Shown here one piece after another: positions 7,677 to 20,429 of a DNA stretch of 64,000 bases (its first letter is position 1; each line of letters starts with the position of its first letter). The stretch spans positions 10,428 through 74,427 of the forward strand of contig CALRGJ010000006.1 in NCBI GenBank assembly GCA_943357285.1. Reading direction: 5' to 3'. The notes below the pieces were generated by a model. That model had not been told where the DNA came from and made no database searches. It saw nothing but the letters and a program-made list of their open reading frames with translations. The position numbers were made by a program, and so were the translations under genes. Source of the DNA: Candidatus Peribacteria bacterium (lineage in GTDB: Bacteria; Patescibacteriota; Gracilibacteria; UBA1369; LOWO2-01-FULL-3).

Positions 7677-9935
7677 CTATTTACATGTAGGGGATTTTAC
7701 TGGTGCTTTGATGCGTACAAGCACGCTGGCATTTGGAGTAGCGATGTCAACGTAGTACGTTTTAAGCGTTGGAGGGGTTGTTGGATTGAAGGTAAGTGGA
7801 CCATCGTATGGATTCCAGACTTCGATCGGTGGCTGATTTTTTTCATCAACCAGGATCTTGATTCCTTCAGGACCTCCTTTAATCAATCCCACCATGGGGA
7901 GTTCATCACAACCTCCCTGTATGGAAGGAATCATGAAATAGCCCATAGGCATTAGTTCAACTGTAATGAAACTGTAGGTGTCGGTGCCAGGGATGAGGTG
8001 GGAAATTGACCACTGCCCACCTGGGGAACCGATCCACACAGAGAAGCCTTTCTCAGGGTCGCAGGTCCAGTTTTGAGTATCTACTAGACACTGCCCACCA
8101 ATGCACTTTCCCACCGGGCAGTTGTAGCAGGGATCCGCTTTGCACTTGTTGGCTGAGTTGCAGATCTGACCTTCCGGACATGAGGGACACAGTTGGCTGA
8201 GGCCATCGCATCCGGGATTTGTCATTGCACACTTGCCACATTCGCATCCGAGTTCTTCGCAGGACTGAACTTTGCATTTGTAGTGACATTTACCATCGAC
8301 AGCTGAGCAGAATTTGTCGTTGGGACATGTCCCGCAACTTCCGCCACACGAGTCCGAGCCGCACTCATTTTGGTAGCAGGCGGGCTTGCAGGTTTGTGTA
8401 TCCTTGCCGTCCGTGCTTGCATAAAAACTTCCAGCATCCTGCTCTCCTGTGCCGCCGCCGTACTGACCGCTGCCGGGATTTTCATCCTGAGAAACGGTGC
8501 TCTGACCTTGGCCGCACATGTAGCCCGACTGATTGCACTCGCACCCGCCCTGACACTTGTTTTTGTAACAGTAGCAGGGCGAAAGTGAAGTGATCATTCG
8601 CGCATACTCGCCGCGTGTCACGAATTCGTAGGGGTCGTATTGCAGAAGATCCTTGTCGATTCCGTTGTAGTAGGCGATGGTTTGCAGATACTTGTAGGAC
8701 CAGTCGCTGCTCTTGAGTTTCAGGAATTTGGCATACATGCCGGTCTTGAGTTCCGCCTTGTTGGCTTTGACCGCAGACTCGACTGCCATTTTCGCTGCTT
8801 CCGAGAAGTAAATCTCCTGTTCAGGGTTGAAGTGATCGTTGTCCTTGCTGATGACGCCGTACTTCACGCCGCAGACCACGAAGGGATAGAACCATTGAGA
8901 AGGATTTACATCCGTGAATGGTTCCAGAGTTCCTTCGCAGTCTTTGTCGAGACCGAAAAGAGCCAGTGCAATTTTCAGCGCTTCCGCTCGGGTGAGGTTA
9001 TCATCCTTGTGGAATTTACCGTCGCTTTTGCCGCTCACGGCACACTCGTGCCAGAGGTAGTTCACTGCCCAGGCAGTAGTGCTATCCGAAGAACTGAGAT
9101 CCTTGAAAGGAGTCTCGCTCTTGTTCTCGCAGTCCTCATTCATCGGGCATTGCATCTCGCAGACTTGAGGCGGATCAGGCTCCTGCTCTGGAGGGGTGGG
9201 TTCTTCTTGAGAATTATCCACTTCCGAGCAGTCAGCCTTTTCCACGTTTGTCAGCTTGAGCGCAGTGTAGATGCCATCCGTATAGATGTCGTTGCCGACG
9301 ATGCACTTAGGCACGCCGTTGCCGTCAGTGAATCCCATCTCGATGGGCAGGTGAGTCTCGCAGTCCTCGAACTGGAAGTGGAGGTGAGCACCTGAAACAT
9401 TTCCAGTCTTGCCGATTTCTCCGATCTTAAGACCCTGACACACCTCCATATCCTGAGCCACGCTTACGGACCCATCAAGCATGTGTGCGTAACGAGTGCA
9501 GATGTTGTTGCCATGATTGAGCAGCACGAAGTTGCCCCAGCCCTTGGATTTGCCAATCTCCTTCACGGAGCCGTCAGCAGAAGCCAACACTGAATCACCC
9601 ATGTCAGAATCTTCAGGCAAGCTGAAGTCCCAACTGAAAACCGCGTGCTCCAGAACAGTATGAGACGAATCGCAGAACGAGAGCGGATCTGTACCATACT
9701 TTTGATCGCACGCCTCGCAATGCATGCCCCAGGACTGAGTGATTTCCCAGTTGTAGCCCTGCGGCACCGGCACCTTGAAGTTGCTGCCGATGAGGTGGAG
9801 GCGATTGATCGAGTAGCCGACTTCAGTAGAAGTAGTATCGAATTGAATGGAGTTAATCTCCTTTTCCTTGTTGTTGGAATTGCACGCCGTGATCACCATG
9901 ATCATGACGAGCAGCTTGTAGATGTTGTGCAGCAT
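7677..9935 (-). CDS. lipoprotein with M23 peptidase domain, three SLH-like repeats and a cysteine-rich region
   Basis: Lipobox VITAC. M23 motifs (GSVKEIG...GNFVLLNHG...TRYAHM...GNVSGAHLHFQFE). SLH-like repeats (FKDLSSSD..TAWAVNYL...LTRAEALKIA; FTDVNPSQWFYPFV). A Cys-dense block (CGSDSCGGSCGTCPNDKFC...). Strong SD aaGGAGAAAgctcATG. The gene is much richer in G+C than its neighbours. Confidence 0.85.
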   Translation of the reverse strand: MLHNIYKLLVMIMVITACNSNNKEKEINSIQFDTTSTEVGYSINRLHLIGSNFKVPVPQGYNWEITQSWGMHCEACDQKYGTDPLSFCDSSHTVLEHAVFSWDFSLPEDSDMGDSVLASADGSVKEIGKSKGWGNFVLLNHGNNICTRYAHMLDGSVSVAQDMEVCQGLKIGEIGKTGNVSGAHLHFQFEDCETHLPIEMGFTDGNGVPKCIVGNDIYTDGIYTALKLTNVEKADCSEVDNSQEEPTPPEQEPDPPQVCEMQCPMNEDCENKSETPFKDLSSSDSTTAWAVNYLWHECAVSGKSDGKFHKDDNLTRAEALKIALALFGLDKDCEGTLEPFTDVNPSQWFYPFVVCGVKYGVISKDNDHFNPEQEIYFSEAAKMAVESAVKANKAELKTGMYAKFLKLKSSDWSYKYLQTIAYYNGIDKDLLQYDPYEFVTRGEYARMITSLSPCYCYKNKCQGGCECNQSGYMCGQGQSTVSQDENPGSGQYGGGTGEQDAGSFYASTDGKDTQTCKPACYQNECGSDSCGGSCGTCPNDKFCSAVDGKCHYKCKVQSCEELGCECGKCAMTNPGCDGLSQLCPSCPEGQICNSANKCKADPCYNCPVGKCIGGQCLVDTQNWTCDPEKGFSVWIGSPGGQWSISHLIPGTDTYSFITVELMPMGYFMIPSIQGGCDELPMVGLIKGGPEGIKILVDEKNQPPIEVWNPYDGPLTFNPTTPPTLKTYYVDIATPNASVLVRIKAPVKSPTCK

Positions 9936-10250
9936 GAGCTTTCTCCTTGTTGTAAACAGACTGAGATGTCAAAGAACATGCCGTGTATTTCACGGCTAAA
10001 GTTCACCTAGACTATTGATTCTTGGAACGAAGGTATCTCTCGATCCTCTTATTCACGTATGAACCACAATGCAACCTTCATGCTAATACAATAAAAAAAA
10101 TCTCAAAATAAAATATAAATAAAAAAGCCTAAAGAGCAGCAGCAAAACAAAAACTAAACTTAAAAAGTGTTGAACAGGTCCGTTCGACACAAAATATTTG
10201 CAAAAAAAAATAGCCCGTAGCTTAATGTAAACATTTATAACAATTCAAAT

Positions 10251-11014: not shown

Positions 11015-11602
11015 TTACAAGATCATATCAAATACCAAATTATCTACAGATTCAGCTATATCTTTTCCTCCATAAATTACCATGTCGTAATCTCCAAAAG
11101 CATTGCTTACATAATACATAATTTGTTTTACATCTCCTCCAACATCCGCACGTACGGATCTAGCTCCACTTATATCAGTTTTTCTAGCAGATACATCTTT
11201 CTCATCATATCCAGAAGCGGCGTTTACCTGCTTTTTTAGTAAATCAGCATCAGCAACTGTTCCATCAATACCACTCATATCAGCCAATTTATCAGACGGA
11301 TTTGTCGGCTTGAAATCTCTTGTTGCCAACCATATTTTTGGTGCTTTTGAATTATCAGCTGTTCCGAAAGATAATATTTTTCCGAAACCAACCTCTGCCT
11401 TCAAGTTTGTAACCACAGGTTCTCCCCATAATTTGTCATAACAAAACTGTAATGTGGAATCAGGCAATTTATATGCTACCTCTGAATTATCACATGCTAT
11501 TACTGCAGTTGCAGGATTAAATCTAACGGGAGTTGCAGTCTTTGTCCCTCCGCAAGCAGTCAGCATTACAGCTGCCATAGTTACTACAAGTATTTTTTTC
11601 AT
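11015..11602 (-). CDS. hypothetical lipoprotein, last gene of the sigma/A2M-like operon
   Basis: Lipobox MLTACGG. It lies 61 nt downstream of the giant gene on the same strand and is followed by the terminator at 10971-11002. Confidence 0.6.
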   Translation of the reverse strand: MKKILVVTMAAVMLTACGGTKTATPVRFNPATAVIACDNSEVAYKLPDSTLQFCYDKLWGEPVVTNLKAEVGFGKILSFGTADNSKAPKIWLATRDFKPTNPSDKLADMSGIDGTVADADLLKKQVNAASGYDEKDVSARKTDISGARSVRADVGGDVKQIMYYVSNAFGDYDMVIYGGKDIAESVDNLVFDMIL

Positions 11603-11663: not shown

Positions 11664-14600
11664 TTACTTCGCCGGATTAATTTTTATCATAGCCGGTTCA
11701 GATATATTTGCCACATTATGATCATAGAATGAAGTGATTTTTGCCGGATCAGCATAGAAAGTACCCGGATTTACCACCTTCGCGTAATACACTATCTTTG
11801 ATCTGGATGTTCCATGAATTACTTCTTTGAAATATGGGAACCAGCAGAAACTAATTTCCTGACCATTAATCATAAATGGATAGCTCAAATTTGTATCAAA
11901 AGTACTTCCATACATTGGCATATAGCTGATTGCAGGGGTTAGTCCGCTTGGTAGAATATCTGTAATTCTATAAAACGGTGAAGCTACGGAACCAGGACTT
12001 CCCAAATCAATCTCTACTCTTACTAAATCACCTTCATTAAATTCTGTGGTTTCTTTTCCATTCACTAAATATTTTCTCGTAATGTTGAGTCTGGAATCTT
12101 TCTTGAATTCCGCCGGTTCAACACCATCTCTGTAGTTCAATACGGCAGCAAGTGATCCCTCACTCACTGATACTGCCACCACGTCACCTGGAGAAGCCAA
12201 AATAGATTTAGACTCGCCGGTTTTTATGGAAACATTTTCGCTAGCTTGATTCAATTTATATTTAAATGAAACAGGTGAAGTCTTCGCATTTTTTATAGCA
12301 CCTGTAACATATCCAAGTTCATATAAATTGGTCAGATCTTCATTACCAAAACCACTCATGTTTACTCCTTTCCATAACGTCTCAGCAGTAAGTACATCAT
12401 TGATTGAGGAAGCTAGATCCGCACCCAAGGCAAGATTATGGATTCCCGTATTGCTAGTGTCTCCAACCAGCTTAGTTGATACTTCCTGAAGAATCTTTCT
12501 TGCATCCGGGTAGCTACCAATCTTCGCATAAGCTAGACCAAGGTATAGTTTTTGTTGAACAGATAATTCTTTAGCTTTAGCAATTTCTCTAATATCTAGT
12601 AGCACTGGTTCTTTCATGCTCGCCAAGCCTAAAAGTGAAAGAACTATGTCATCCAAATTAGATTTTGGATCTTTAAATACGTTATAGAAATATCTCTTCA
12701 GCTCATGTTTGCTATATCTATCTAAATTCACATCAAAAGCCACAACTAGTGCGGAAAGTTTCAAGTCATTGCTAGCATATGGTAGTAACGCCAATCCACC
12801 ATCTCTTTGGTAGCTCTCTAAAATATAATTACCTTCATCTTCATCGTGCTGTGCAAATTCTTTACCGAAATATTTTTTTAGAATATCTGCTGCCGCTTTG
12901 CTCGCCACTATTTGATCAAGACGTTTACCATCATTATAATAAAGAGAAAGTAAATTGTAATAATAATATGCTACGCCACTATCTAGGAATTGGATTTCAG
13001 TCTGCCCTTGTTTACCAAGGTTAAAGACAGTTTTATCATCAATATTTCTGATAGTCTTTACTACATCTTGAGTCAGACGTGATCCCTTCACCTCAAAAGG
13101 TTTTTTCATGGCGTCTTTCATTGATCTTGAATCAGCTTTTACTGTCACATCATGAGTTCCAAGAGGAAGAGCAGGTAGATTGAAATAGCTTCCAACAAAG
13201 GCCTTCCCATCAATAGCTTTTCCTTTTACTCCATCAACATCTGGATTGAATGTAACGGCATCACCATCTTTTAATTCTTTACCATAAGCTCTGAATTTAA
13301 TCATCGGATTATCTTTCTCTGAATATTCACGGTTCATCACCATGTCTACAAAGAAAGGTAGAGTCACTTTGATATTTTTTGTTTCAGTTCCGGCACTAAG
13401 ACTATCTATGTTAATTGCTGTAGCAAGAATTCTCCAAGAAGTGATATTGTCAGGAACTTTGAATTTTACTGATCCACGACCATCGGAACCTACGTCAGCG
13501 CTATAGAAAAGTGCAGTGTCCTTAAACTGCTGTCTTACATAATAGGCACCGTCACCTTTTTCATTATGAACAAAGAATCCATTGGCAAAATAGGTGTGAT
13601 AATCTTTAATTTCCATATTATAAACATCTACACTCTTCACTACTGGTCTCATTGAAGCAATCTTAATTAAGTGACCATCTTTATCAACCATACTGTCACC
13701 TAATTTTAAGTCTGCAACCTTTATCCATTGTCCATTAGCAAAGACTACATGTTCAGCTGTCACTTCAAGATTTTCATTGATAACAAAATATTCTGAAACA
13801 TTTTTGATAGTCTTTCCCACAACTTCTGCAGGAATTAATTTTGATGAAAATTCATTTTCTTTTGTGAGAATTTTGTCACCCTTTTTAATATCTTTAATTG
13901 CTTTCGTAGTGCCATCCGCCATAGAGATTTGAGTTTCACCGGTAAAACATCCGCCTTTCCCACCCTCACCAGATTTGGCATTTAGTGGATTATTATGCGT
14001 AAAGTAGCTCAATAAAATTCCTGAACCGGATGAGTAATATATTTGTTCCAAAGGATCGCTCATACCTGAATACACAGTTTTGTAGTAAGCCTCATCTACG
14101 ATGTTGAAATTTATTTTTGCAGGCATTGGGGCACCATCATTGTTGGTAACATAAACCGACAAACTAACTTCTTCACCAGGTTTATATTCTTCTTTGTTAC
14201 TATCAATTTTCAATTTCAAATTTTTCATCTCCCTCTTGTATTCGATATTTGTGCTGTTGGCCTGTTTATAAGTTTTTCCATCGAACCAAACTCCATCCAC
14301 AAATACATTCGGAACATTATCTTTTGAGAATTTGAAAGAATAATATGGAGAATCTTTAATCTCATATTTTTGTATACCATTACTTTCCTGCATGAATAAA
14401 AATCTACCTTTTGTTTCTTTTGGTAAATCAATAGTGTAGTTCTTTGAAATTACCGTATCCACAGTTTCTCCTATATCAAAACGGTAATTTGAGCCGTTCC
14501 AATATTCATTGGAATTTTTTGAAAGATTTTCTTTTAATACTTTCATGCTGTAATACTCATAATCATTTGAACCATCGCTCATATCTCCATAAACATAAGA

Positions 14601-17183
14601 TGTAGAGTAAGCTGGACCATTTTGATCATCAATAGTTTTTAGCGCAACAATATAATATTTATCTGAATCGATAGGGAACTGATAGCTTGCTTCTCCATTC
14701 TCATTTGTCACCCCGCTTATTGACGCAATTTTTTCTTTTTTCTGCGTGTAGTTATAGGTTTTTGCAGTCACTTTATTTATAAAATCATAATATTCACCGC
14801 TTTCTTCTTTGTCCCAACTTACTTGAATAATATTGCCGGTAAAATTTCTATTTTTAGCAACATCACCAAGATAGTCATCGTAACTTTTCTCGCTGGCATT
14901 GTTTATTCTTTTTAAATCCACCCACTTGGTTTTTACCGCTAAATTGGCAACTGTCGTGCCATCATCTTTTTTCACTGTCTCGGCTCTGCTCGCGATATTT
15001 AAGTGAGAATTAAATATTCTCACATCATTATTCGCTTGGATAGCACTTTCCTCGGATAATTTTGATTCAATATTATAATAGAAATAATTTATATCTGAGC
15101 AGTATTCTTCGTACTCATAAGTACAATCACTTTTTTTAGCTACCATGCTCGCCTTCGCTTCACCTTTAGTATTTGTAGTAAAAGTTTTTGATTTATTGGA
15201 AGAATCCAGCTGTCCATTATCCGTGATAGCTAAATTTGCAACCGGAGTCCCATCAAAAAATTCCGATTTAATATTGAAGTTTACCGTCTCTCCTACAAAC
15301 ACTGCATGTTTATCATTCTCCATCGTGAGATTATATGCAGGTTTAATATAATCTTCGACTTCAAAAGTAGTGGATGAAATCTGATCTTCACCTTGATAAA
15401 TTTGTATTGAGTAAGTAGATGGAGTGAAACTCTTTATCTCAAATTCACCCTCTATTGCCCCATCTTTATCAAATGTCAGTGGAATTTCTCTTACAAAAGT
15501 ATCCCAGTTATGCATTAGCTTCACCTTCAAATTATCAGGTTTGGCCACTCCGCTTTTTGGAGTAACGAATCCCCAGAAATGAACTTTATCCGTTGGTTTA
15601 TATTTTGAACGATCAGTAATAAGAGTCTTCCAGTAACTCATGCTCTTGTCTACCGAGAAGTAAACATAACCATCCAAAGGTGTAACTAAAGTCTTTCCAT
15701 CCGGAGCAGTTATTTTTGCGAAAGAAGCTACCATTTCACCATTTGTATCCGTAAAATCTTTCCAGGACTGAGGAGTTGTGAATTTTGCAATTCCATCACT
15801 TCCGGTTTTGATTACTTGATCAAGATCTTTGATTTGAATAGTAGCACCTTCCACCGGTTTTCCGGTTTGCAAATCATTCACCCAAATTACAGAATCAGTT
15901 ATAGAAGTCGTAATATAAGAAGATAAATCCGTTATTTGCACCAAAGTTTGAGCCTTATGGCCATTGTCATCTACCTGGAATAAGTAGTAGCCTTTATCTA
16001 AAGTTTTCTCTGGCAAGTATAGATATGAATTCCAGCGTGGGGTCTCTATAAGACCTTGCATGCTTCCCAAATCCTGCAATCCTGTAGTTGAGTGCAAATA
16101 CTTATTATTTGAATAATAAGCCCAGCGAGGAACATTTGCTGAATTCTTAAGCGCACTCAAATACTGGTTTTGATCGGTATACTTGTAGACTTGAATCGAA
16201 ACATCTTTCTTGCCCTGTTGCTCAAAACTATAAGAATAAACCTCCATTGCTATAGAACTTGTTGGAGAAATTTCATAGTAATCTTTGCTGAAATTGAAAT
16301 TTTGACCTGATGTAGATGGCCCTCCGTCTGTTTCAAATTTAAAAACAAAATCTTTTTCCAGTTTTTTGTCGGTATCTTTGATGCCAAATCCTTGCTTCAA
16401 TTTTACTGTATAAATAGTTTCAGAATTCAAAGGACTATTTGGTATGAAGCTCATAATTCTATCATGTTTTTCAAATCTTCCATCCACTTTAGGACTTATT
16501 TCAAAGAAATTTTGGACATTTTTGAAATCATAAGAAGCATGGCTGAAATTAATTTCAATTCCTGTATTTGTAGGCACGTAGCTGGATGCATTTGTTGGAA
16601 TACTTCCGTCGACTTTGAAATTATCTTGAATTTGATAAGCCCAACTTTGATCGCCATCATCAGTTTCAATATAGAAATTATATATTGTATTAGCCTCTAG
16701 TCCCTTTACCGCCTCCACTCTATATTTTCCTTTATCGGTTTTCTCAACATTGAGTTTAACTTCCGGCTGAACTTTTAGATTTTCCTTAATAATATCGACA
16801 CTGAGATCTTCGCTTGCAGTTAGAGTAAACCCACTATCGCTAGCCACTCCGCTCGCATCTTCAGTGATTGCCACCATCTCGAAATCCGCATATACAACCT
16901 GCATATTTGATCCAAACCAACCACGCAAACCACTGCTGAATACTAGAGCAACAATCAAAAGTCCTGAGATAACTGAAACTGATACTAATCTTTCCGGCAT
17001 CTTGAAAAGTGATTTGAATAAATCAACAAAAGTAGCTTTTTTATCTGTAACATCTTCCGCAATTTCGGCAGTGTGCTGTTTTTTCTTCATATCAACTTTC
17101 TTAGATATATATTTCCATAGATATTCTTTGCTCTTCTTGAGCTCTAGGTTATCCACCGACCTATTTGTGTATTTTTTATCCAT
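11664..17183 (-). CDS. membrane-anchored alpha-2-macroglobulin-like protein with embedded Hint domain (possible anti-sigma fusion)
   Basis: 1839 aa. The N-terminal ~65 aa are hydrophilic, then one TM (LVSVSVISGLLIVALVF), then long beta-rich MG-like repeats. An A2M_N_2-like segment (KPGEEVSLSVYV...NFNIVDEAYY) and the A2M signature (RQQFKDTALF...VPDNITSWRILA) follow. The TED-like region (YQRDGGLALLPY) has no CxEQ. The start lies 3 nt after the sigma-factor stop. Confidence 0.85.
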   Translation of the reverse strand: MDKKYTNRSVDNLELKKSKEYLWKYISKKVDMKKKQHTAEIAEDVTDKKATFVDLFKSLFKMPERLVSVSVISGLLIVALVFSSGLRGWFGSNMQVVYADFEMVAITEDASGVASDSGFTLTASEDLSVDIIKENLKVQPEVKLNVEKTDKGKYRVEAVKGLEANTIYNFYIETDDGDQSWAYQIQDNFKVDGSIPTNASSYVPTNTGIEINFSHASYDFKNVQNFFEISPKVDGRFEKHDRIMSFIPNSPLNSETIYTVKLKQGFGIKDTDKKLEKDFVFKFETDGGPSTSGQNFNFSKDYYEISPTSSIAMEVYSYSFEQQGKKDVSIQVYKYTDQNQYLSALKNSANVPRWAYYSNNKYLHSTTGLQDLGSMQGLIETPRWNSYLYLPEKTLDKGYYLFQVDDNGHKAQTLVQITDLSSYITTSITDSVIWVNDLQTGKPVEGATIQIKDLDQVIKTGSDGIAKFTTPQSWKDFTDTNGEMVASFAKITAPDGKTLVTPLDGYVYFSVDKSMSYWKTLITDRSKYKPTDKVHFWGFVTPKSGVAKPDNLKVKLMHNWDTFVREIPLTFDKDGAIEGEFEIKSFTPSTYSIQIYQGEDQISSTTFEVEDYIKPAYNLTMENDKHAVFVGETVNFNIKSEFFDGTPVANLAITDNGQLDSSNKSKTFTTNTKGEAKASMVAKKSDCTYEYEEYCSDINYFYYNIESKLSEESAIQANNDVRIFNSHLNIASRAETVKKDDGTTVANLAVKTKWVDLKRINNASEKSYDDYLGDVAKNRNFTGNIIQVSWDKEESGEYYDFINKVTAKTYNYTQKKEKIASISGVTNENGEASYQFPIDSDKYYIVALKTIDDQNGPAYSTSYVYGDMSDGSNDYEYYSMKVLKENLSKNSNEYWNGSNYRFDIGETVDTVISKNYTIDLPKETKGRFLFMQESNGIQKYEIKDSPYYSFKFSKDNVPNVFVDGVWFDGKTYKQANSTNIEYKREMKNLKLKIDSNKEEYKPGEEVSLSVYVTNNDGAPMPAKINFNIVDEAYYKTVYSGMSDPLEQIYYSSGSGILLSYFTHNNPLNAKSGEGGKGGCFTGETQISMADGTTKAIKDIKKGDKILTKENEFSSKLIPAEVVGKTIKNVSEYFVINENLEVTAEHVVFANGQWIKVADLKLGDSMVDKDGHLIKIASMRPVVKSVDVYNMEIKDYHTYFANGFFVHNEKGDGAYYVRQQFKDTALFYSADVGSDGRGSVKFKVPDNITSWRILATAINIDSLSAGTETKNIKVTLPFFVDMVMNREYSEKDNPMIKFRAYGKELKDGDAVTFNPDVDGVKGKAIDGKAFVGSYFNLPALPLGTHDVTVKADSRSMKDAMKKPFEVKGSRLTQDVVKTIRNIDDKTVFNLGKQGQTEIQFLDSGVAYYYYNLLSLYYNDGKRLDQIVASKAAADILKKYFGKEFAQHDEDEGNYILESYQRDGGLALLPYASNDLKLSALVVAFDVNLDRYSKHELKRYFYNVFKDPKSNLDDIVLSLLGLASMKEPVLLDIREIAKAKELSVQQKLYLGLAYAKIGSYPDARKILQEVSTKLVGDTSNTGIHNLALGADLASSINDVLTAETLWKGVNMSGFGNEDLTNLYELGYVTGAIKNAKTSPVSFKYKLNQASENVSIKTGESKSILASPGDVVAVSVSEGSLAAVLNYRDGVEPAEFKKDSRLNITRKYLVNGKETTEFNEGDLVRVEIDLGSPGSVASPFYRITDILPSGLTPAISYMPMYGSTFDTNLSYPFMINGQEISFCWFPYFKEVIHGTSRSKIVYYAKVVNPGTFYADPAKITSFYDHNVANISEPAMIKINPAK
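13563..13949 (-). other. Hint / mini-intein-like (BIL-like) domain inside the A2M-like CDS
   Basis: Residues 1079-1207 read CFTGETQISMADG...LEVTAEHVV...DYHTYFANGFFVHN. This gives Cys1, the TxxH block B and the terminal His-Asn. It is 129 aa with no endonuclease insert. The +1 residue is Glu (HN|EKGDG). Confidence 0.8.
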
Positions 17184-17186
17184 TGT

Positions 17187-17762
17187 TTAGGCTAGGTTAG
17201 GTGATAATAAGTCTCTCAAATTTGTCATTGCCCTATGCATCACGGCTTTGACAGCGCTTTCTGAACTTTCTGTGGTCTCAGCAATTTCTTTCTGTGACAT
17301 ACCTGTGAAGTAGTACAGACTTATTACATTTTGATGCTCTGGTTTGAGAGTGGCCAAGGCATCGCTCAATTTAGTTAGTTCTTCATCTCCGAATAATGTC
17401 TTATCTAATTCCTTTAACTCTTCCTTCACATCCACTGCTAATCCTTCATGTCCTTCCGGTACGTCTTCCAAAGCAGCAGAGCTTGGGTTTCGACGCTGAT
17501 TTTTTAGCGCGTTAATAGCGATTCTATAGAGCCATACTTTGATTGATATGCCAGTCCATTTGAATTTGTGTAAGCTTTCGAAAGCTTTGATGAAGGTGTC
17601 AGCCGTTAAGTCATATGCGACCTCTGAATTGAGAGTGCGTTTGACCAGATATTTGAGAATCATCTCGTAGTAGAATTCATAGATTTTCTCAAAAGCTTGA
17701 GGGTTGTCCTTGAATTCAACTAATATCTGTTGCTGGACCTCGGAAGGAAGATCCTGGGACAT
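17187..17762 (-). CDS. ECF-type RNA polymerase sigma-70 family factor
   Basis: Region 2 (DLTADTFIKAFESLHKF...KVWLYRIAINALKNQRR) and region 4 (ISLYYFTGMSQKEIAETTESSESAVKAVMHRAMTNLR). Confidence 0.9.
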   Translation of the reverse strand: MSQDLPSEVQQQILVEFKDNPQAFEKIYEFYYEMILKYLVKRTLNSEVAYDLTADTFIKAFESLHKFKWTGISIKVWLYRIAINALKNQRRNPSSAALEDVPEGHEGLAVDVKEELKELDKTLFGDEELTKLSDALATLKPEHQNVISLYYFTGMSQKEIAETTESSESAVKAVMHRAMTNLRDLLSPNLA

Positions 17763-18341: not shown

Positions 18342-20429
18342 ATGGATAAAATAAATATGAAAAATAAAAACAAAAAACAGTATTTGGCCATCGTTTTGGC
18401 CATCGGTATAATATTCACCAGCACTCAAAATGCCGACATTGGTAAGTACATTAGACCTTCGGTTTTTGTGGATTTCAGCATTGAGCAAAGTCGCAAAATT
18501 TCTATGGTAAGCAATATAGAAGAAGACCTGCTTACAGCTAGAAATGTTCTTAGAGGTTGTGATGTTGTGGTTGTGGGAGGAGGTGCCTCCGGTACGGCAG
18601 CGGCTATACAATCTGGGAGAATGGGTGTGAAGACCTGTATTATTGAACAAACAGATTGGCTGGGGGATATGCTAACAGCTTCAGGAGTCTCAGCTATTGA
18701 TGGTGACCCCGCAAAAACCTCAGGTATTTTTCGCGAATTTTTAGATAGAGTAATTAGTTATTATAAAAAAGAAGGTAAATCCGCTCAAACTCATCTTTGT
18801 CATGTAAGTCCATTTTGTTATGAGCCTTCTGTAGGAGCCGCAATTTTGAATGAGATGGTTTCAGAAGTGCCTACTTTGAAAGTTTATTACAACTCTTATG
18901 TTACCAAAGTGTACCGTGAAGGTAATTTAATTAGAGGTGTAAAATTTAAGAATAATAAGGGTGGTGACTACGTTGTCCCTGCACATGTAGTAATTGATGC
19001 TACTCAGTTTGGTGATCTGATGTATATGGCAAATATTCCTTATGACATCGGTGTAGATGAGAATTCCACCGAGTTTCATGCGAATATTACTTCTCAATGT
19101 ATTCAGCCACTCACTTTCGTCGCAGTTTTGGAATTCAAAGGTAAAGATGTAACTATTCCCGAACCTGAAAATTATAATATCAATAATTATAAATGTACTA
19201 TTCCAAATAAGCTTTGTCCCGGATCAAGCAGTCAGTTTGATATGGAGCGTCTTTTGGAATATGGACATCTCCCAAATGATAAAATGATGATCAATGTTCC
19301 AAGCCATTCATATGGTAATGATTATGATGCCTCAAGAGAAGCTCTGGATAATTTTAGTCGCGCCGATATTTTCCAAAAGGCTAAAGATTTTTCTTTGGGA
19401 TATATCTATTTTATACAGAAGGAACTTGGTTTTAATTATTATGGATTGAGCAATGAATTTGGAACTGATGATAAACTCGCAAAACTTCCATATGTGAGAG
19501 AAAGCAGACGTCTTGTGGGACAATATCGTCTCCAAGAAGAAGATGTACTTCCTGATAGTGATGGGCGTTCTAAAATTTTCTCAGATAGCATAGCAATTGG
19601 TGATTATCCAATTGATTTACACTTCTGTGAAAGAGGAAAAGGAGATTTTTATTACCCAATTCCTCCGTATCAAATTCCATATGGAGTGACAGTGCCTAAG
19701 GAAATTGATGGATTTCTTGTTGCTGGTCAAAATATCTCAGTGAGTCACATCGTAAATGGTACTACAAGAATGCAGCCCGTAGTAATGCAGTTGGGACAAG
19801 CTGTCGGAATGGCCTCTGCTCTTTCCGTAATTAATGATGTTCAGCCTCGCAATGTTCCAATTTTAGAACTACAAGAAAAATTAATTAATGCGGGATCAAA
19901 GGTTCTATATTTTAGCGATGTGAATACTGACAGTTTTTCTTATCCATACGTTACCAAACTTGCTTTGAAAAACATTCTTCGCGGTTACAACGATTTTTCT
20001 TTCAAGCCAAATGTTGCAATCAATAATTATGATATGACCATGATGTTCGCTAAGGCTTCAGCTCTTACCGAATATCAACAATTTAACGAGAATACAACTT
20101 TTGAATATGAAGACGCCCTAGCCTTATTAAAAGAAAAAAACATTTTTGATAAATCGTTAGATTTATCAAAAGTAGAAAAACCTGTTACCAGAGAGGAATT
20201 GGCGCATGTAATTTCTAGATTTGTAGATCCAACCGGTAAACACACAGCTTCTAGCAAAAACTTTAGCGACGTTACTAAAAAGAGTCGATTTCAAGCTGAT
20301 ATATCAAAGCTCGCCAGCCTGGACATAGTAAGTTCTAAACATGATAAATTCAGACCAGGAGATGTGGCAACTCGTGCTGAAGCGGTGACCATGCTTGGCA
20401 AAGCCATGGAGTATTCATCATCACTTTAG
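18342..20429 (+). CDS. exported FAD-dependent oxidoreductase with C-terminal SLH repeats
   Basis: Signal peptide. Dinucleotide-binding motif VVVVGGGASGTAAAIQSGRMG. C-terminal SLH-like repeats (FSDVNTDSFSYPYVTKLALKNILRGY..F.P; FSDVTKKSRFQADISKLASLDIV...FRPGDVATRAEAVTMLGKAM). Confidence 0.8.
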   Translation: MDKINMKNKNKKQYLAIVLAIGIIFTSTQNADIGKYIRPSVFVDFSIEQSRKISMVSNIEEDLLTARNVLRGCDVVVVGGGASGTAAAIQSGRMGVKTCIIEQTDWLGDMLTASGVSAIDGDPAKTSGIFREFLDRVISYYKKEGKSAQTHLCHVSPFCYEPSVGAAILNEMVSEVPTLKVYYNSYVTKVYREGNLIRGVKFKNNKGGDYVVPAHVVIDATQFGDLMYMANIPYDIGVDENSTEFHANITSQCIQPLTFVAVLEFKGKDVTIPEPENYNINNYKCTIPNKLCPGSSSQFDMERLLEYGHLPNDKMMINVPSHSYGNDYDASREALDNFSRADIFQKAKDFSLGYIYFIQKELGFNYYGLSNEFGTDDKLAKLPYVRESRRLVGQYRLQEEDVLPDSDGRSKIFSDSIAIGDYPIDLHFCERGKGDFYYPIPPYQIPYGVTVPKEIDGFLVAGQNISVSHIVNGTTRMQPVVMQLGQAVGMASALSVINDVQPRNVPILELQEKLINAGSKVLYFSDVNTDSFSYPYVTKLALKNILRGYNDFSFKPNVAINNYDMTMMFAKASALTEYQQFNENTTFEYEDALALLKEKNIFDKSLDLSKVEKPVTREELAHVISRFVDPTGKHTASSKNFSDVTKKSRFQADISKLASLDIVSSKHDKFRPGDVATRAEAVTMLGKAMEYSSSL

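Follow-up and report, generated by a model that had tools for sequence, protein, structure and literature searches.

The window analysed here is a stretch of 64,000 nucleotides from a Candidatus Peribacteria bacterium (assembly GCA_943357285.1, contig CALRGJ010000006.1, positions 10,428 to 74,427 of the forward strand), and all coordinates below count from its first letter. Positions 11664-17183 of the reverse strand hold an intact, uninterrupted open reading frame (ORF) of 1839 amino acids (aa). It encodes a membrane-anchored protein related to alpha-2-macroglobulin (A2M), in which the thioester motif is absent and a Hint domain (13563-13949) is placed in the bait loop, as judged from the ORF, its Pfam matches and a comparison of an AlphaFold2 (AF2) model of aa 640-1839 with ECAM and Salmonella A2M. 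All features of this gene lie on the reverse strand, and a sigma factor gene adjoins it.

Pfam matches on the host protein are Big_5 (aa 189-285), MG2 (aa 521-609), A2M_BRD (aa 903-1034, positions 14082-14477), A2M (aa 1223-1296, positions 13296-13517) and a weak bMG10 (aa 1700-1821, positions 11721-12086). By Pfam and profile alignment, A2M_BRD is the bait-region domain and includes the first half of the MG8-equivalent sandwich; the A2M match, placed by Pfam, the family alignment and the profile, extends from the second half of MG8 into the beginning of MG9 and includes the VPDNITSWR motif. A helical TED-like domain without CxEQ is predicted at about aa 1404-1631 (12291-12974) from the secondary structure of the AF2 model and a profile match to the C-terminal region of ECAM, and the weak bMG10 match belongs to a C-terminal MG10-like domain, which the profile aligns to ECAM 1271-1607. 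Among the Pfam matches of the host protein there is no TED or thiol-ester family, TED_complement included, and none of its four cysteines (687, 695, 1079 and 1780) stands in a CxEQ context. With its MG, bait-region, TED-like and C-terminal MG domains, the protein is a member of the alpha-2-macroglobulin/thioester-containing superfamily; the family profile also matches C5, CD109 and TEP1. The AF2 model of aa 640-1839 (11667-15266) reached a mean predicted local distance difference test (pLDDT) of 81 and a predicted template-modelling score (pTM) of 0.58, with a well-folded Hint part, and Foldseek matched it to ECAM (5A42) and Salmonella A2M (4U48) with E about 1e-40. The domain arrangement in the model is nearer to protease-activated ECAM (4ZIQ, TMq 0.50; 4RTD, 0.42) and activated CD109, while native ECAM and Salmonella A2M score lower (0.28-0.29), which at a pTM of 0.58 may be an artefact.

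The insert itself (aa 1079-1207) translates into 129 aa, CFTGETQISMADG...LEVTAEHVVF...YHTYFANGFFVHN, which start with CFTGETQ, contain TAEH and end with FFVHN. It is preceded by ...SGEGGKGG/ and followed by /EKGDGAYYVRQQFKDTALF...VPDNITSWRILA (here and below, a slash marks a Hint boundary), and the residue after Asn1207 is Glu1208. An earlier note on this DNA, made from the sequence letters, had described an insert with a Cys start, T-A-E-H, a His-Asn end and a following Glu in a protein with four cysteines, none of them in CxEQ; its coordinates, flanks, Gly1078-Cys1079/Asn1207 numbering and cysteine count are correct. The same note had read the insert as a minimal Hint or bacterial intein-like (BIL) fold and proposed a search with Hint and intein profiles, and the results bear this out. 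Using the insert alone, Pfam returned PT-HINT (E = 5.8e-16), Vint (3.8e-10), Hom_end_hint (8e-8) and, more weakly, Intein_splicing and Hint, so the match to the Hint fold is far beyond chance; the NCBIfam model intein_Cterm also scored above its cutoff. When the Hint was modelled in AF2 together with 10 residues to either side, the pLDDT was 90 and the pTM 0.84. The top Foldseek matches of this model in the PDB were Tetrahymena BUBL BIL2 (6Y75/6TMM, TMq 0.79-0.81) and then the Clostridium thermocellum BIL 2LWY (0.78), and BILs outranked all true inteins and Hedgehog. The latter BIL was also the best sequence match among solved structures (E = 1.4e-8), followed by a Tetrahymena Vint domain and BUBL BIL2.

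The insert has Cys1, a block-B TxxH, a C-terminal His-Asn, no nucleophile at +1 and no endonuclease, which are the features of the published definition of type-A BILs (PMC4031507). By Pfam, AF2 and Foldseek, that is, by sequence and predicted fold, it is a type-A BIL domain, and its residues indicate a complete minimal Hint fold with all class-1 catalytic residues intact. Cys1079 (13947-13949), residue 1 of the Hint, is the putative nucleophile of the N-S acyl shift; T1142-A-E-H1145 (13749-13760) forms block B, and His1206-Asn1207 (13563-13568) forms block G, with the residues for Asn cyclisation and C-terminal cleavage. On the C-terminal side, the linker Glu1208-Lys1209-Gly-Asp-Gly-Ala (13545-13562) has low pLDDT, a non-nucleophilic +1 residue and, from the homologue counts, a conserved Lys at +2. 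The insert does not agree with a canonical class-1 intein: the +1 residue is Glu (Asp, Glu or Gln in the majority of the family) and not Cys, Ser or Thr. Such inteins occupy conserved sites of essential proteins, usually of nucleic-acid metabolism, and often carry a homing endonuclease; this domain has 129 aa and no endonuclease, and lies at a disordered-loop site of a surface A2M-like host. From the Glu at +1, the earlier note had suggested cleavage instead of splicing. The non-nucleophilic +1 residue is real, but taken alone it does not point to cleavage only, since type-A BILs are able to join the segments on either side even when +1 is not a nucleophile (PMC4031507).

A search with the full-length protein found 113 relatives, with a Hint in 64 of them (down to 28% identity) and none in about 45. 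A second, exhaustive search of representatives, with aa 985-1300, returned 366 of them (50%-identity level) at E <= 1e-30, and nearly all of the best 150 of these are full-length Hint-A2M proteins. A word-indexed homology search with the Hint only gave 8 candidates and one fragment and was uninformative on relatives outside the A2M family. Flank and catalytic residues were counted in 193 distinct verified Hint-A2M proteins, and blocks B and F in the first 64 homologues. Cys1 and His-Asn are present in 193/193 each. The residue at -1 is Gly in 183/193 and that at -2 in 171/193, with Gly-Gly at -2/-1 in 170/193. The +1 position is occupied by D (93), E (37), Q (27), A (18), S (7), N (5), K (3), T (2) and I (1); it is non-nucleophilic in 184/193, Ser or Thr in 9/193 and never Cys (0/193). 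A Lys occurs within +1 to +4 in 192/193, at +2 or +3 in almost all. Invariant in 64/64, in Hint numbering, are T64 and H67 of block B (the Thr and His of TAEH), N58, T119, A122 and V127, and the F-block His is present in 62/64.

The Hint is also better conserved than its host, being the more similar part in 2989 of 3000 sampled pairs, with a mean identity of 45% against 31%. The Hint active site is thus under strong purifying selection. The earlier note had named, as evidence against itself, homologues with Ser, Thr or Cys at +1 that would make this copy a decayed intein, and had called for a survey of homologous A2M-like genes. In that survey the Hint proved widespread and the +1 residue mostly D, E or Q; because 184 of the 193 homologues lack Ser, Thr or Cys at +1, the missing nucleophile is a family trait and not a mark of a decayed copy. 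The GC-content of the Hint (0.320, host gene 0.360) lies within the spread of windows of the host gene (0.357 +/- 0.025), and this composition gives no sign of a recent foreign origin. As to direct repeats, the two flanks of the Hint have no more than an AAAGG pentamer in common at the DNA level, with nothing clear that would explain precise loss. In some proteins (P0154, P0236 and P0243; also P0174 and P0190), 2-5 copies of a closely related Hint stand in tandem and share the Lys/Gly-Gly junction signature with the A2M Hints; in P0154, P0236 and P0243 they are joined head to tail via K(G)GG-type linkers (VHN/KGGG/CF).

Alignment of the family shows the Hint as a cleanly inserted segment. Hint-bearing proteins read ...GAExGG/Hint/[DEQ]KGG..R..F.DTA.F..., and Hint-less homologues read ...SH..P...GGAE[KRMQCG]GG-GGGD..R..F.DTA.F...LPDN.TSWR. 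The family profile matches ECAM/YfhM and Salmonella A2M with E about 1e-37, and its Gly-rich loop falls on ECAM chain residues ~904-921. The same profile position begins the match to human A2M at chain residue 702, which we take to lie inside the annotated bait region 690-728. The numbering offset for ECAM (+39) was set by matching the 20-residue segment RYGADIYDIYGQVIEGQGRL to Arg923-Leu942, the bait segment reported as disordered in elastase-cleaved ECAM, whose MG8 contains the bait-region domain (PMC4498604). On this numbering the insertion point falls at about ECAM 943-960, beside Arg923-Leu942, and this range includes Arg956 of the cleaved bait region (PMC4498604). To this range aligns the linker on the N-terminal side, aa 1059-1078 (13950-14009), HNNPLNAKSGEGGKGG, whose last residues are Gly1077-Gly1078. 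In the AF2 model of aa 640-1839, pLDDT drops below 50 at exactly two linkers, aa 1059-1077 and 1208-1213, one on each side of the Hint. The claim that the insert occupies the bait-equivalent position, for which the earlier note had proposed a structure prediction, is therefore upheld by the profile alignment next to the ECAM bait segment and by the disordered linkers of the model; both place the Hint in the disordered bait loop of the MG8-equivalent domain. That MG8 receives strands from both sides of the Hint is suggested by homology to ECAM.

The bait-equivalent loop (~aa 1070-1215) of the Hint-less proteins P0055-P0107, from Bacillota, Chloroflexota and the candidate phyla radiation (CPR), keeps GAE[KRMQCG]GG-GGGD conserved, and a conserved motif is unusual for a bait region. 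Four of these proteins (P0094, P0095, P0097 and P0098, P0094 being labelled Chloroflexi) have ...G(G)CG..., with a Cys where Cys1 of the Hint would sit.

Seven Hint-bearing proteins (P0220, P0227, P0234, P0235, P0237, P0240 and P0244; loci L083 and L084) have a canonical GYPYGC[VTA]EQ motif ~200-225 residues after the Hint. TED_complement was matched in four of the five Pfam-scanned thioester-type Hint proteins (P0220, P0237, P0227 and P0244). Their domain order is again A2M_BRD, PT-HINT, A2M, and the flanks, GAEKG/C...VHN/DKGGG..R..F.DTAYWNP...LPDNLTTW, mark the same site. Compared with the window protein, the host parts are only 17-19% identical and the Hints 43-48% identical; when the post-Hint region was compared by BLASTP with a thioester-type relative, the alignment was limited to the MG8 and MG10 parts and did not cover GCxEQ. 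The Hints of thioester-type hosts form no separate clade in a crude neighbour-joining tree (saturated distances, no bootstrap). On a host tree of the same crude kind and with the same limits, which can serve as an indication only, the presence of the Hint is patchy, with ~13 parsimony changes. The Hint may have moved between A2M lineages or been lost repeatedly, or else constraint may have brought its divergence to a plateau. Since the Hint occurs together with CxEQ at the same site, and CxEQ is also absent from Hint-less relatives of the window protein, thioester loss and Hint presence are uncoupled. Hence a substitute for the lost thioester was rejected as a general explanation of the Hint, given the same Hint in GC[VTA]EQ A2Ms. 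The earlier suggestion that a Gly1078-Cys1079 thioester replaces the missing CxEQ fails for the same reason: seven Hint homologues keep CxEQ, and no compensatory pattern is seen. The covalent capture or release that was proposed with it falls as a CxEQ replacement, while acyl transfer to a lysine, which BUBL BIL2 performs, is still conceivable.

The sigma factor gene at 17187-17762 of the reverse strand encodes an extracytoplasmic function (ECF)-type sigma-70 protein of 191 aa (Pfam Sigma70_r2, Sigma70_r4 and Sigma70_ECF), the probable cognate sigma factor. It lies directly upstream on the same strand, and 4 nt separate the end of its ORF from the start of the A2M ORF. In 69 homologous loci with enough upstream DNA, a sigma gene was found in 23; it stands directly upstream on the same strand at 15 of 26 Hint-bearing and 8 of 43 Hint-less loci (Fisher p = 0.0014, phylogeny ignored). 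Where a sigma gene adjoins, 47-119 aa (median 75) of the A2M-like protein precede its transmembrane helix, as against a median of 7 elsewhere (p = 1e-10). Such N-terminal extensions occur only beside a sigma gene, and they share the amphipathic pattern ...F[KQ]..L[RK]..L.... In the window protein, aa 1-62 (16998-17183) would form a cytoplasmic segment with the conserved motif NRxVD..KSxxYLWxYI, a putative anti-sigma domain without a Pfam match, and a hydropathy scan places a single transmembrane helix at about aa 63-85 (16929-16997). No known anti-sigma Pfam domain was matched in the N-terminus of the A2M-like protein. The single-pass topology, a cytoplasmic N-terminus followed by one transmembrane helix, fits an ECF anti-sigma pair, and the sigma-linked N-terminus suggests an anti-sigma sensor. 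Synteny and topology thus point to the window protein as a membrane anti-sigma partner of the adjacent ECF sigma factor, with an A2M-like sensor ectodomain. No description of an anti-sigma factor paired with a macroglobulin was found in the literature searched.

The family comprises at least 547 loci in GTDB genomes. Hint-bearing loci are mostly labelled Patescibacteria (Peregrinibacteria/Peribacteria, Magasanikiibacteriota, Moraniibacteriota, Falkowbacteria, Kerfeldbacteria, Uhrbacteria, Parcubacteria and Saccharibacteria), with candidate division WOR-1 in addition; several Hint-bearing metagenome-assembled genomes bear other automatic labels, e.g., Gammaproteobacteria or Flavobacteriales. 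Members without a Hint also occur in Bacillota, Chloroflexota and Actinomycetota. The arrangement is conserved in about 190 distinct proteins of the family, and most of those with a named source come from CPR bacteria. In databases, the proteins of the family are called 'Ig-like domain-containing', 'hypothetical' or 'polymorphic toxin-type HINT domain-containing'. The 1839-codon ORF of the window stays open when read with genetic code 11 and contains no in-frame TGA; one member of its 90%-identity cluster is labelled 'Candidatus Gracilibacteria bacterium' at NCBI, a label that implies code 25 and looks doubtful, and the other named relatives belong to Peregrinibacteria or the Patescibacteria group.

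The analysis establishes the fold, the intact catalytic residues, the bait-loop site, the conservation in the family and the sigma linkage; a cleavage, its products and their downstream effects are what we infer. The reading we favour, and to which about half of our confidence goes, is that a permanently resident, catalytically intact BIL provides protease-independent scission of the bait loop together with its own excision, as a maturation or trigger step. Outside the cell and after folding, Cys1079 would attack the carbonyl of Gly1078 in an N-S acyl shift, and Asn1207 would cyclise; the polypeptide would be cut at one or both Hint junctions, and the Hint would leave the bait loop without an external protease. 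Of the resulting chains, one would consist of the cytoplasmic tail, the transmembrane helix and the MG domains, and the other would run from the second half of MG8 through MG10. The two should stay together, because the MG8-equivalent beta-sandwich would be built from strands on both sides of the loop. Bait-loop scission switches A2M-family proteins to their activated conformation, and the Hint could for this reason act as a built-in trigger or maturation step, constitutive or conditional. In the window protein, the scission would occur within the probable sensor domain of an ECF sigma/anti-sigma pair. Conservation of the catalytic residues argues for autocatalytic N- or C-terminal cleavage or for non-canonical splicing. 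In type-A BILs, an N-terminal thioester is formed, Asn cyclisation releases the C-terminus, and most products are those of cleavage (PMC4031507; PMC7664689); the freed amine can also re-attack the thioester and ligate the flanks, even without a nucleophile at +1 (PMC4031507).

Several observations weigh against self-excision as a trigger or maturation step. The near-invariant Lys at +2/+3 and Gly-Gly at -2/-1 are unneeded for hydrolytic cleavage and hint at acyl transfer to an amine, in re-ligation or conjugation. A2Ms with a thioester motif carry the same Hint, and a constitutive, irreversible scission would discharge their thioester prematurely. The patchy distribution on the crude host tree and the long-range decoupling of Hint and host identity fit an intein-like passenger that restores its host. 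On its own, a cut ~1000 residues away from the membrane would generate no site-2 protease substrate, so any link between the cut and sigma signalling is tentative. The case for cleavage by members of the family is one of residue conservation. A site-1 cut of regulated intramembrane proteolysis was considered as a role of the Hint and is disfavoured by the same distance of ~1000 residues.

The most serious rival, which we regard as possible although clearly less probable than self-excision, is that the Hint is an intein-like passenger which re-ligates its flanks, restores the bait loop as in Hint-less homologues and is nearly silent for the host. The Gly1078 thioester would be captured within the molecule, by the alpha-amine of Glu1208 once Asn1207 has cyclised (the route by which type-A BILs splice without a +1 nucleophile, PMC4031507) or by the epsilon-amine of the conserved Lys1209, giving an isopeptide, and the passenger would persist or spread like a mini-intein specialised for a Gly-rich site. 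The joined flanks, GAExGG + [DE]KGG..R, do match the Hint-less loop in length and composition; the Lys within +1 to +4 of 192/193 proteins and the Gly-Gly before the Hint would serve such a reaction, and the top structural match, BUBL BIL2, makes a Lys isopeptide from an RGG/C junction (PMC8616854). Re-ligation would also accord with Hints alongside functional-looking thioester motifs, with the patchiness on the host tree and with Hints 43-48% identical in hosts only 17-19% identical. Yet a single change of the +1 residue to Ser, Thr or Cys turns BILs into efficient inteins (PMC7664689), and only 9/193 have Ser or Thr there. There is no homing endonuclease, cleavage products dominate in the reported assays of type-A BILs, and the enrichment of sigma genes at Hint-bearing loci (15/26 vs 8/43, phylogeny ignored) suggests a function at the level of the host. 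An ATP-independent acyl transfer within an anti-sigma sensor ectodomain, in which the Gly-Gly thioester of the N-terminal chain passes to Lys1209 (giving a branched, re-joined bait) or to a lysine of an attacker, seems unlikely to us; if it took place, prokaryotes would have an equivalent of BUBL-type conjugation by splicing that is coupled to transcriptional signalling. Still more doubtful is covalent capture, in which a lysine on a different protein (such as a protease, a surface protein of the host cell or a component of the cell wall) would resolve the Gly1078-Cys1079 thioester and so couple the membrane-anchored N-terminal chain to a target, like a CxEQ thioester or a BUBL conjugate. BUBL BIL2 does attach its N-extein to lysines on other proteins in an ATP-independent reaction (PMC8616854), the KGG/CF junction resembles the RGG/C of BUBL, and the window protein lacks CxEQ. 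However, Hints with CxEQ and Hint-less proteins without it show no compensatory pattern, the invariant His-Asn is unneeded for N-terminal acyl transfer alone, and no target-recognition element is evident.

Two further explanations were rejected. A decayed true intein, a relic that no longer processes for want of a +1 nucleophile and persists simply as a bulky domain in the loop, would account for Glu at +1 and for the Ser or Thr in 9/193; we consider it very improbable, as the catalytic residues are invariant over 193 proteins whose Hints diverge to ~30% identity, the Hint is better conserved than its host, and in every clade most members have a non-nucleophilic +1 residue. Hardly credible is a polymorphic-toxin module whose Hint releases a C-terminal toxin, even though PT-HINT is the best Pfam family and some homologues are named 'polymorphic toxin-type HINT domain-containing protein' at NCBI. 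What follows the Hint, 632 residues from the second half of MG8 to MG10, consists of conserved A2M domains, which are shared with Hint-less homologues and ECAM; there is neither a variable C-terminal toxin nor an immunity gene, the downstream 195-aa ORF having no Pfam match, and three genuine PT-HINT toxins lack the GG and [DE]KGG flanks (HN/VNC, HN/DSL and HN/ACG).

The 195-aa ORF (11015-11602, reverse strand) lies directly downstream of the A2M gene; it has 55% identity only in the closest relative, L003, and at another locus (L001) a different unannotated gene of ~208 aa follows the A2M homologue. Several SLH cell-surface proteins cluster near the sigma/A2M pair. One adjoins it (18342-20429, forward strand) and is a FAD-dependent oxidoreductase fused to C-terminal SLH domains; another (7677-9935, reverse strand) is 752 aa long and combines Peptidase_M23 and SLH domains, its C-terminal half being very rich in Cys. 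Positions 8001-10000 have a GC-content of 52%, compared with ~37% for the window.

Type-A BILs, bacterial A2Ms and ECF sigma/anti-sigma pairs are all known. That A2Ms consistently carry a BIL in their bait loop is apparently undescribed; the literature searched yielded no description of a macroglobulin with a HINT domain or with an intein in this sense, and nothing relevant on macroglobulins in connection with CPR. The occurrence of the Hint in both thioester-bearing and thioester-less lineages, the conserved GG/.../xKGG flanks and the sigma linkage likewise appear to be without description. In A2M/C3-family proteins, bait-loop proteolysis is the trigger event. A bait loop with its own cleavage catalyst would mean that the A2M scaffold can mature or fire independently of a protease, or else that a new non-canonical ligation chemistry is at work. 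BIL domains, the biology of which is poorly understood, would gain a defined and conserved structural context, and one module would serve thioester-bearing and thioester-less A2Ms alike. The ECF sigma link suggests that A2M-like ectodomains can be anti-sigma sensors. CPR bacteria, from which most Hint-bearing proteins with a named source come, have large surface proteins that are thought to mediate interaction with host cells.

Among the known systems, the C. thermocellum BIL (2LWY) is alike in being a Hint of ~130 aa without an endonuclease, with Cys1, TxxH and His-Asn and without a +1 nucleophile, in a secreted or surface protein. Described BILs lie in hypervariable regions of non-conserved proteins (PMC7765530), whereas the Hint of the window occupies one fixed site in a conserved multi-domain family and, unlike them, has the conserved flanks GG/ and /[DEQ]KGG. 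BUBL BIL2 (6Y75/6TMM) shares [K/R]-G-G before Cys1, the C-terminal His-Asn and the fold (TMq 0.81). It differs in being eukaryotic, in lying between ubiquitin-like domains and in forming Lys isopeptide conjugates (PMC8616854), while the exteins of the window Hint are the two halves of an A2M MG domain.

The host protein resembles the thioester-type ECAM/YfhM and Salmonella A2M and the thioester-less type II MagD of Pseudomonas in its multiple MG domains, bait-region domain, TED-like domain, C-terminal MG domain and membrane anchoring, and bacterial A2Ms share with it a bait loop inside MG8. It differs from them in an N-terminal transmembrane helix with a cytoplasmic tail in place of a lipoprotein anchor, in the absence of CxEQ, in a short Gly-rich GAExGG bait loop with a Hint, and in an identity of about 12%. 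C3, C4 and C5 are cut constitutively at the bait-equivalent position and stay together as two chains. The proposed cut would be likewise bait-equivalent and would leave two chains sharing one MG domain; the family profile spans the C5 beta/alpha junction region. In C3, C4 and C5, however, furin-type proteases cut a basic linker, whereas the cut in the window protein would be autocatalytic and would excise a whole domain. The SEAL domain of RsgI is a further parallel: RsgI is a single-pass anti-sigma factor encoded beside its sigma gene, with a self-cleaving ectodomain whose fragments are held together by a shared beta-sheet (10.1101/2023.06.27.546760; PMC10328401). The common feature would be an autoproteolytic anti-sigma ectodomain, with the anti-sigma role of the window protein suggested by synteny and topology. 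The SEAL cut is membrane-proximal and uses strain-driven N-O chemistry, whereas in the window protein the cut would lie ~1000 residues from the membrane and would use Hint chemistry.

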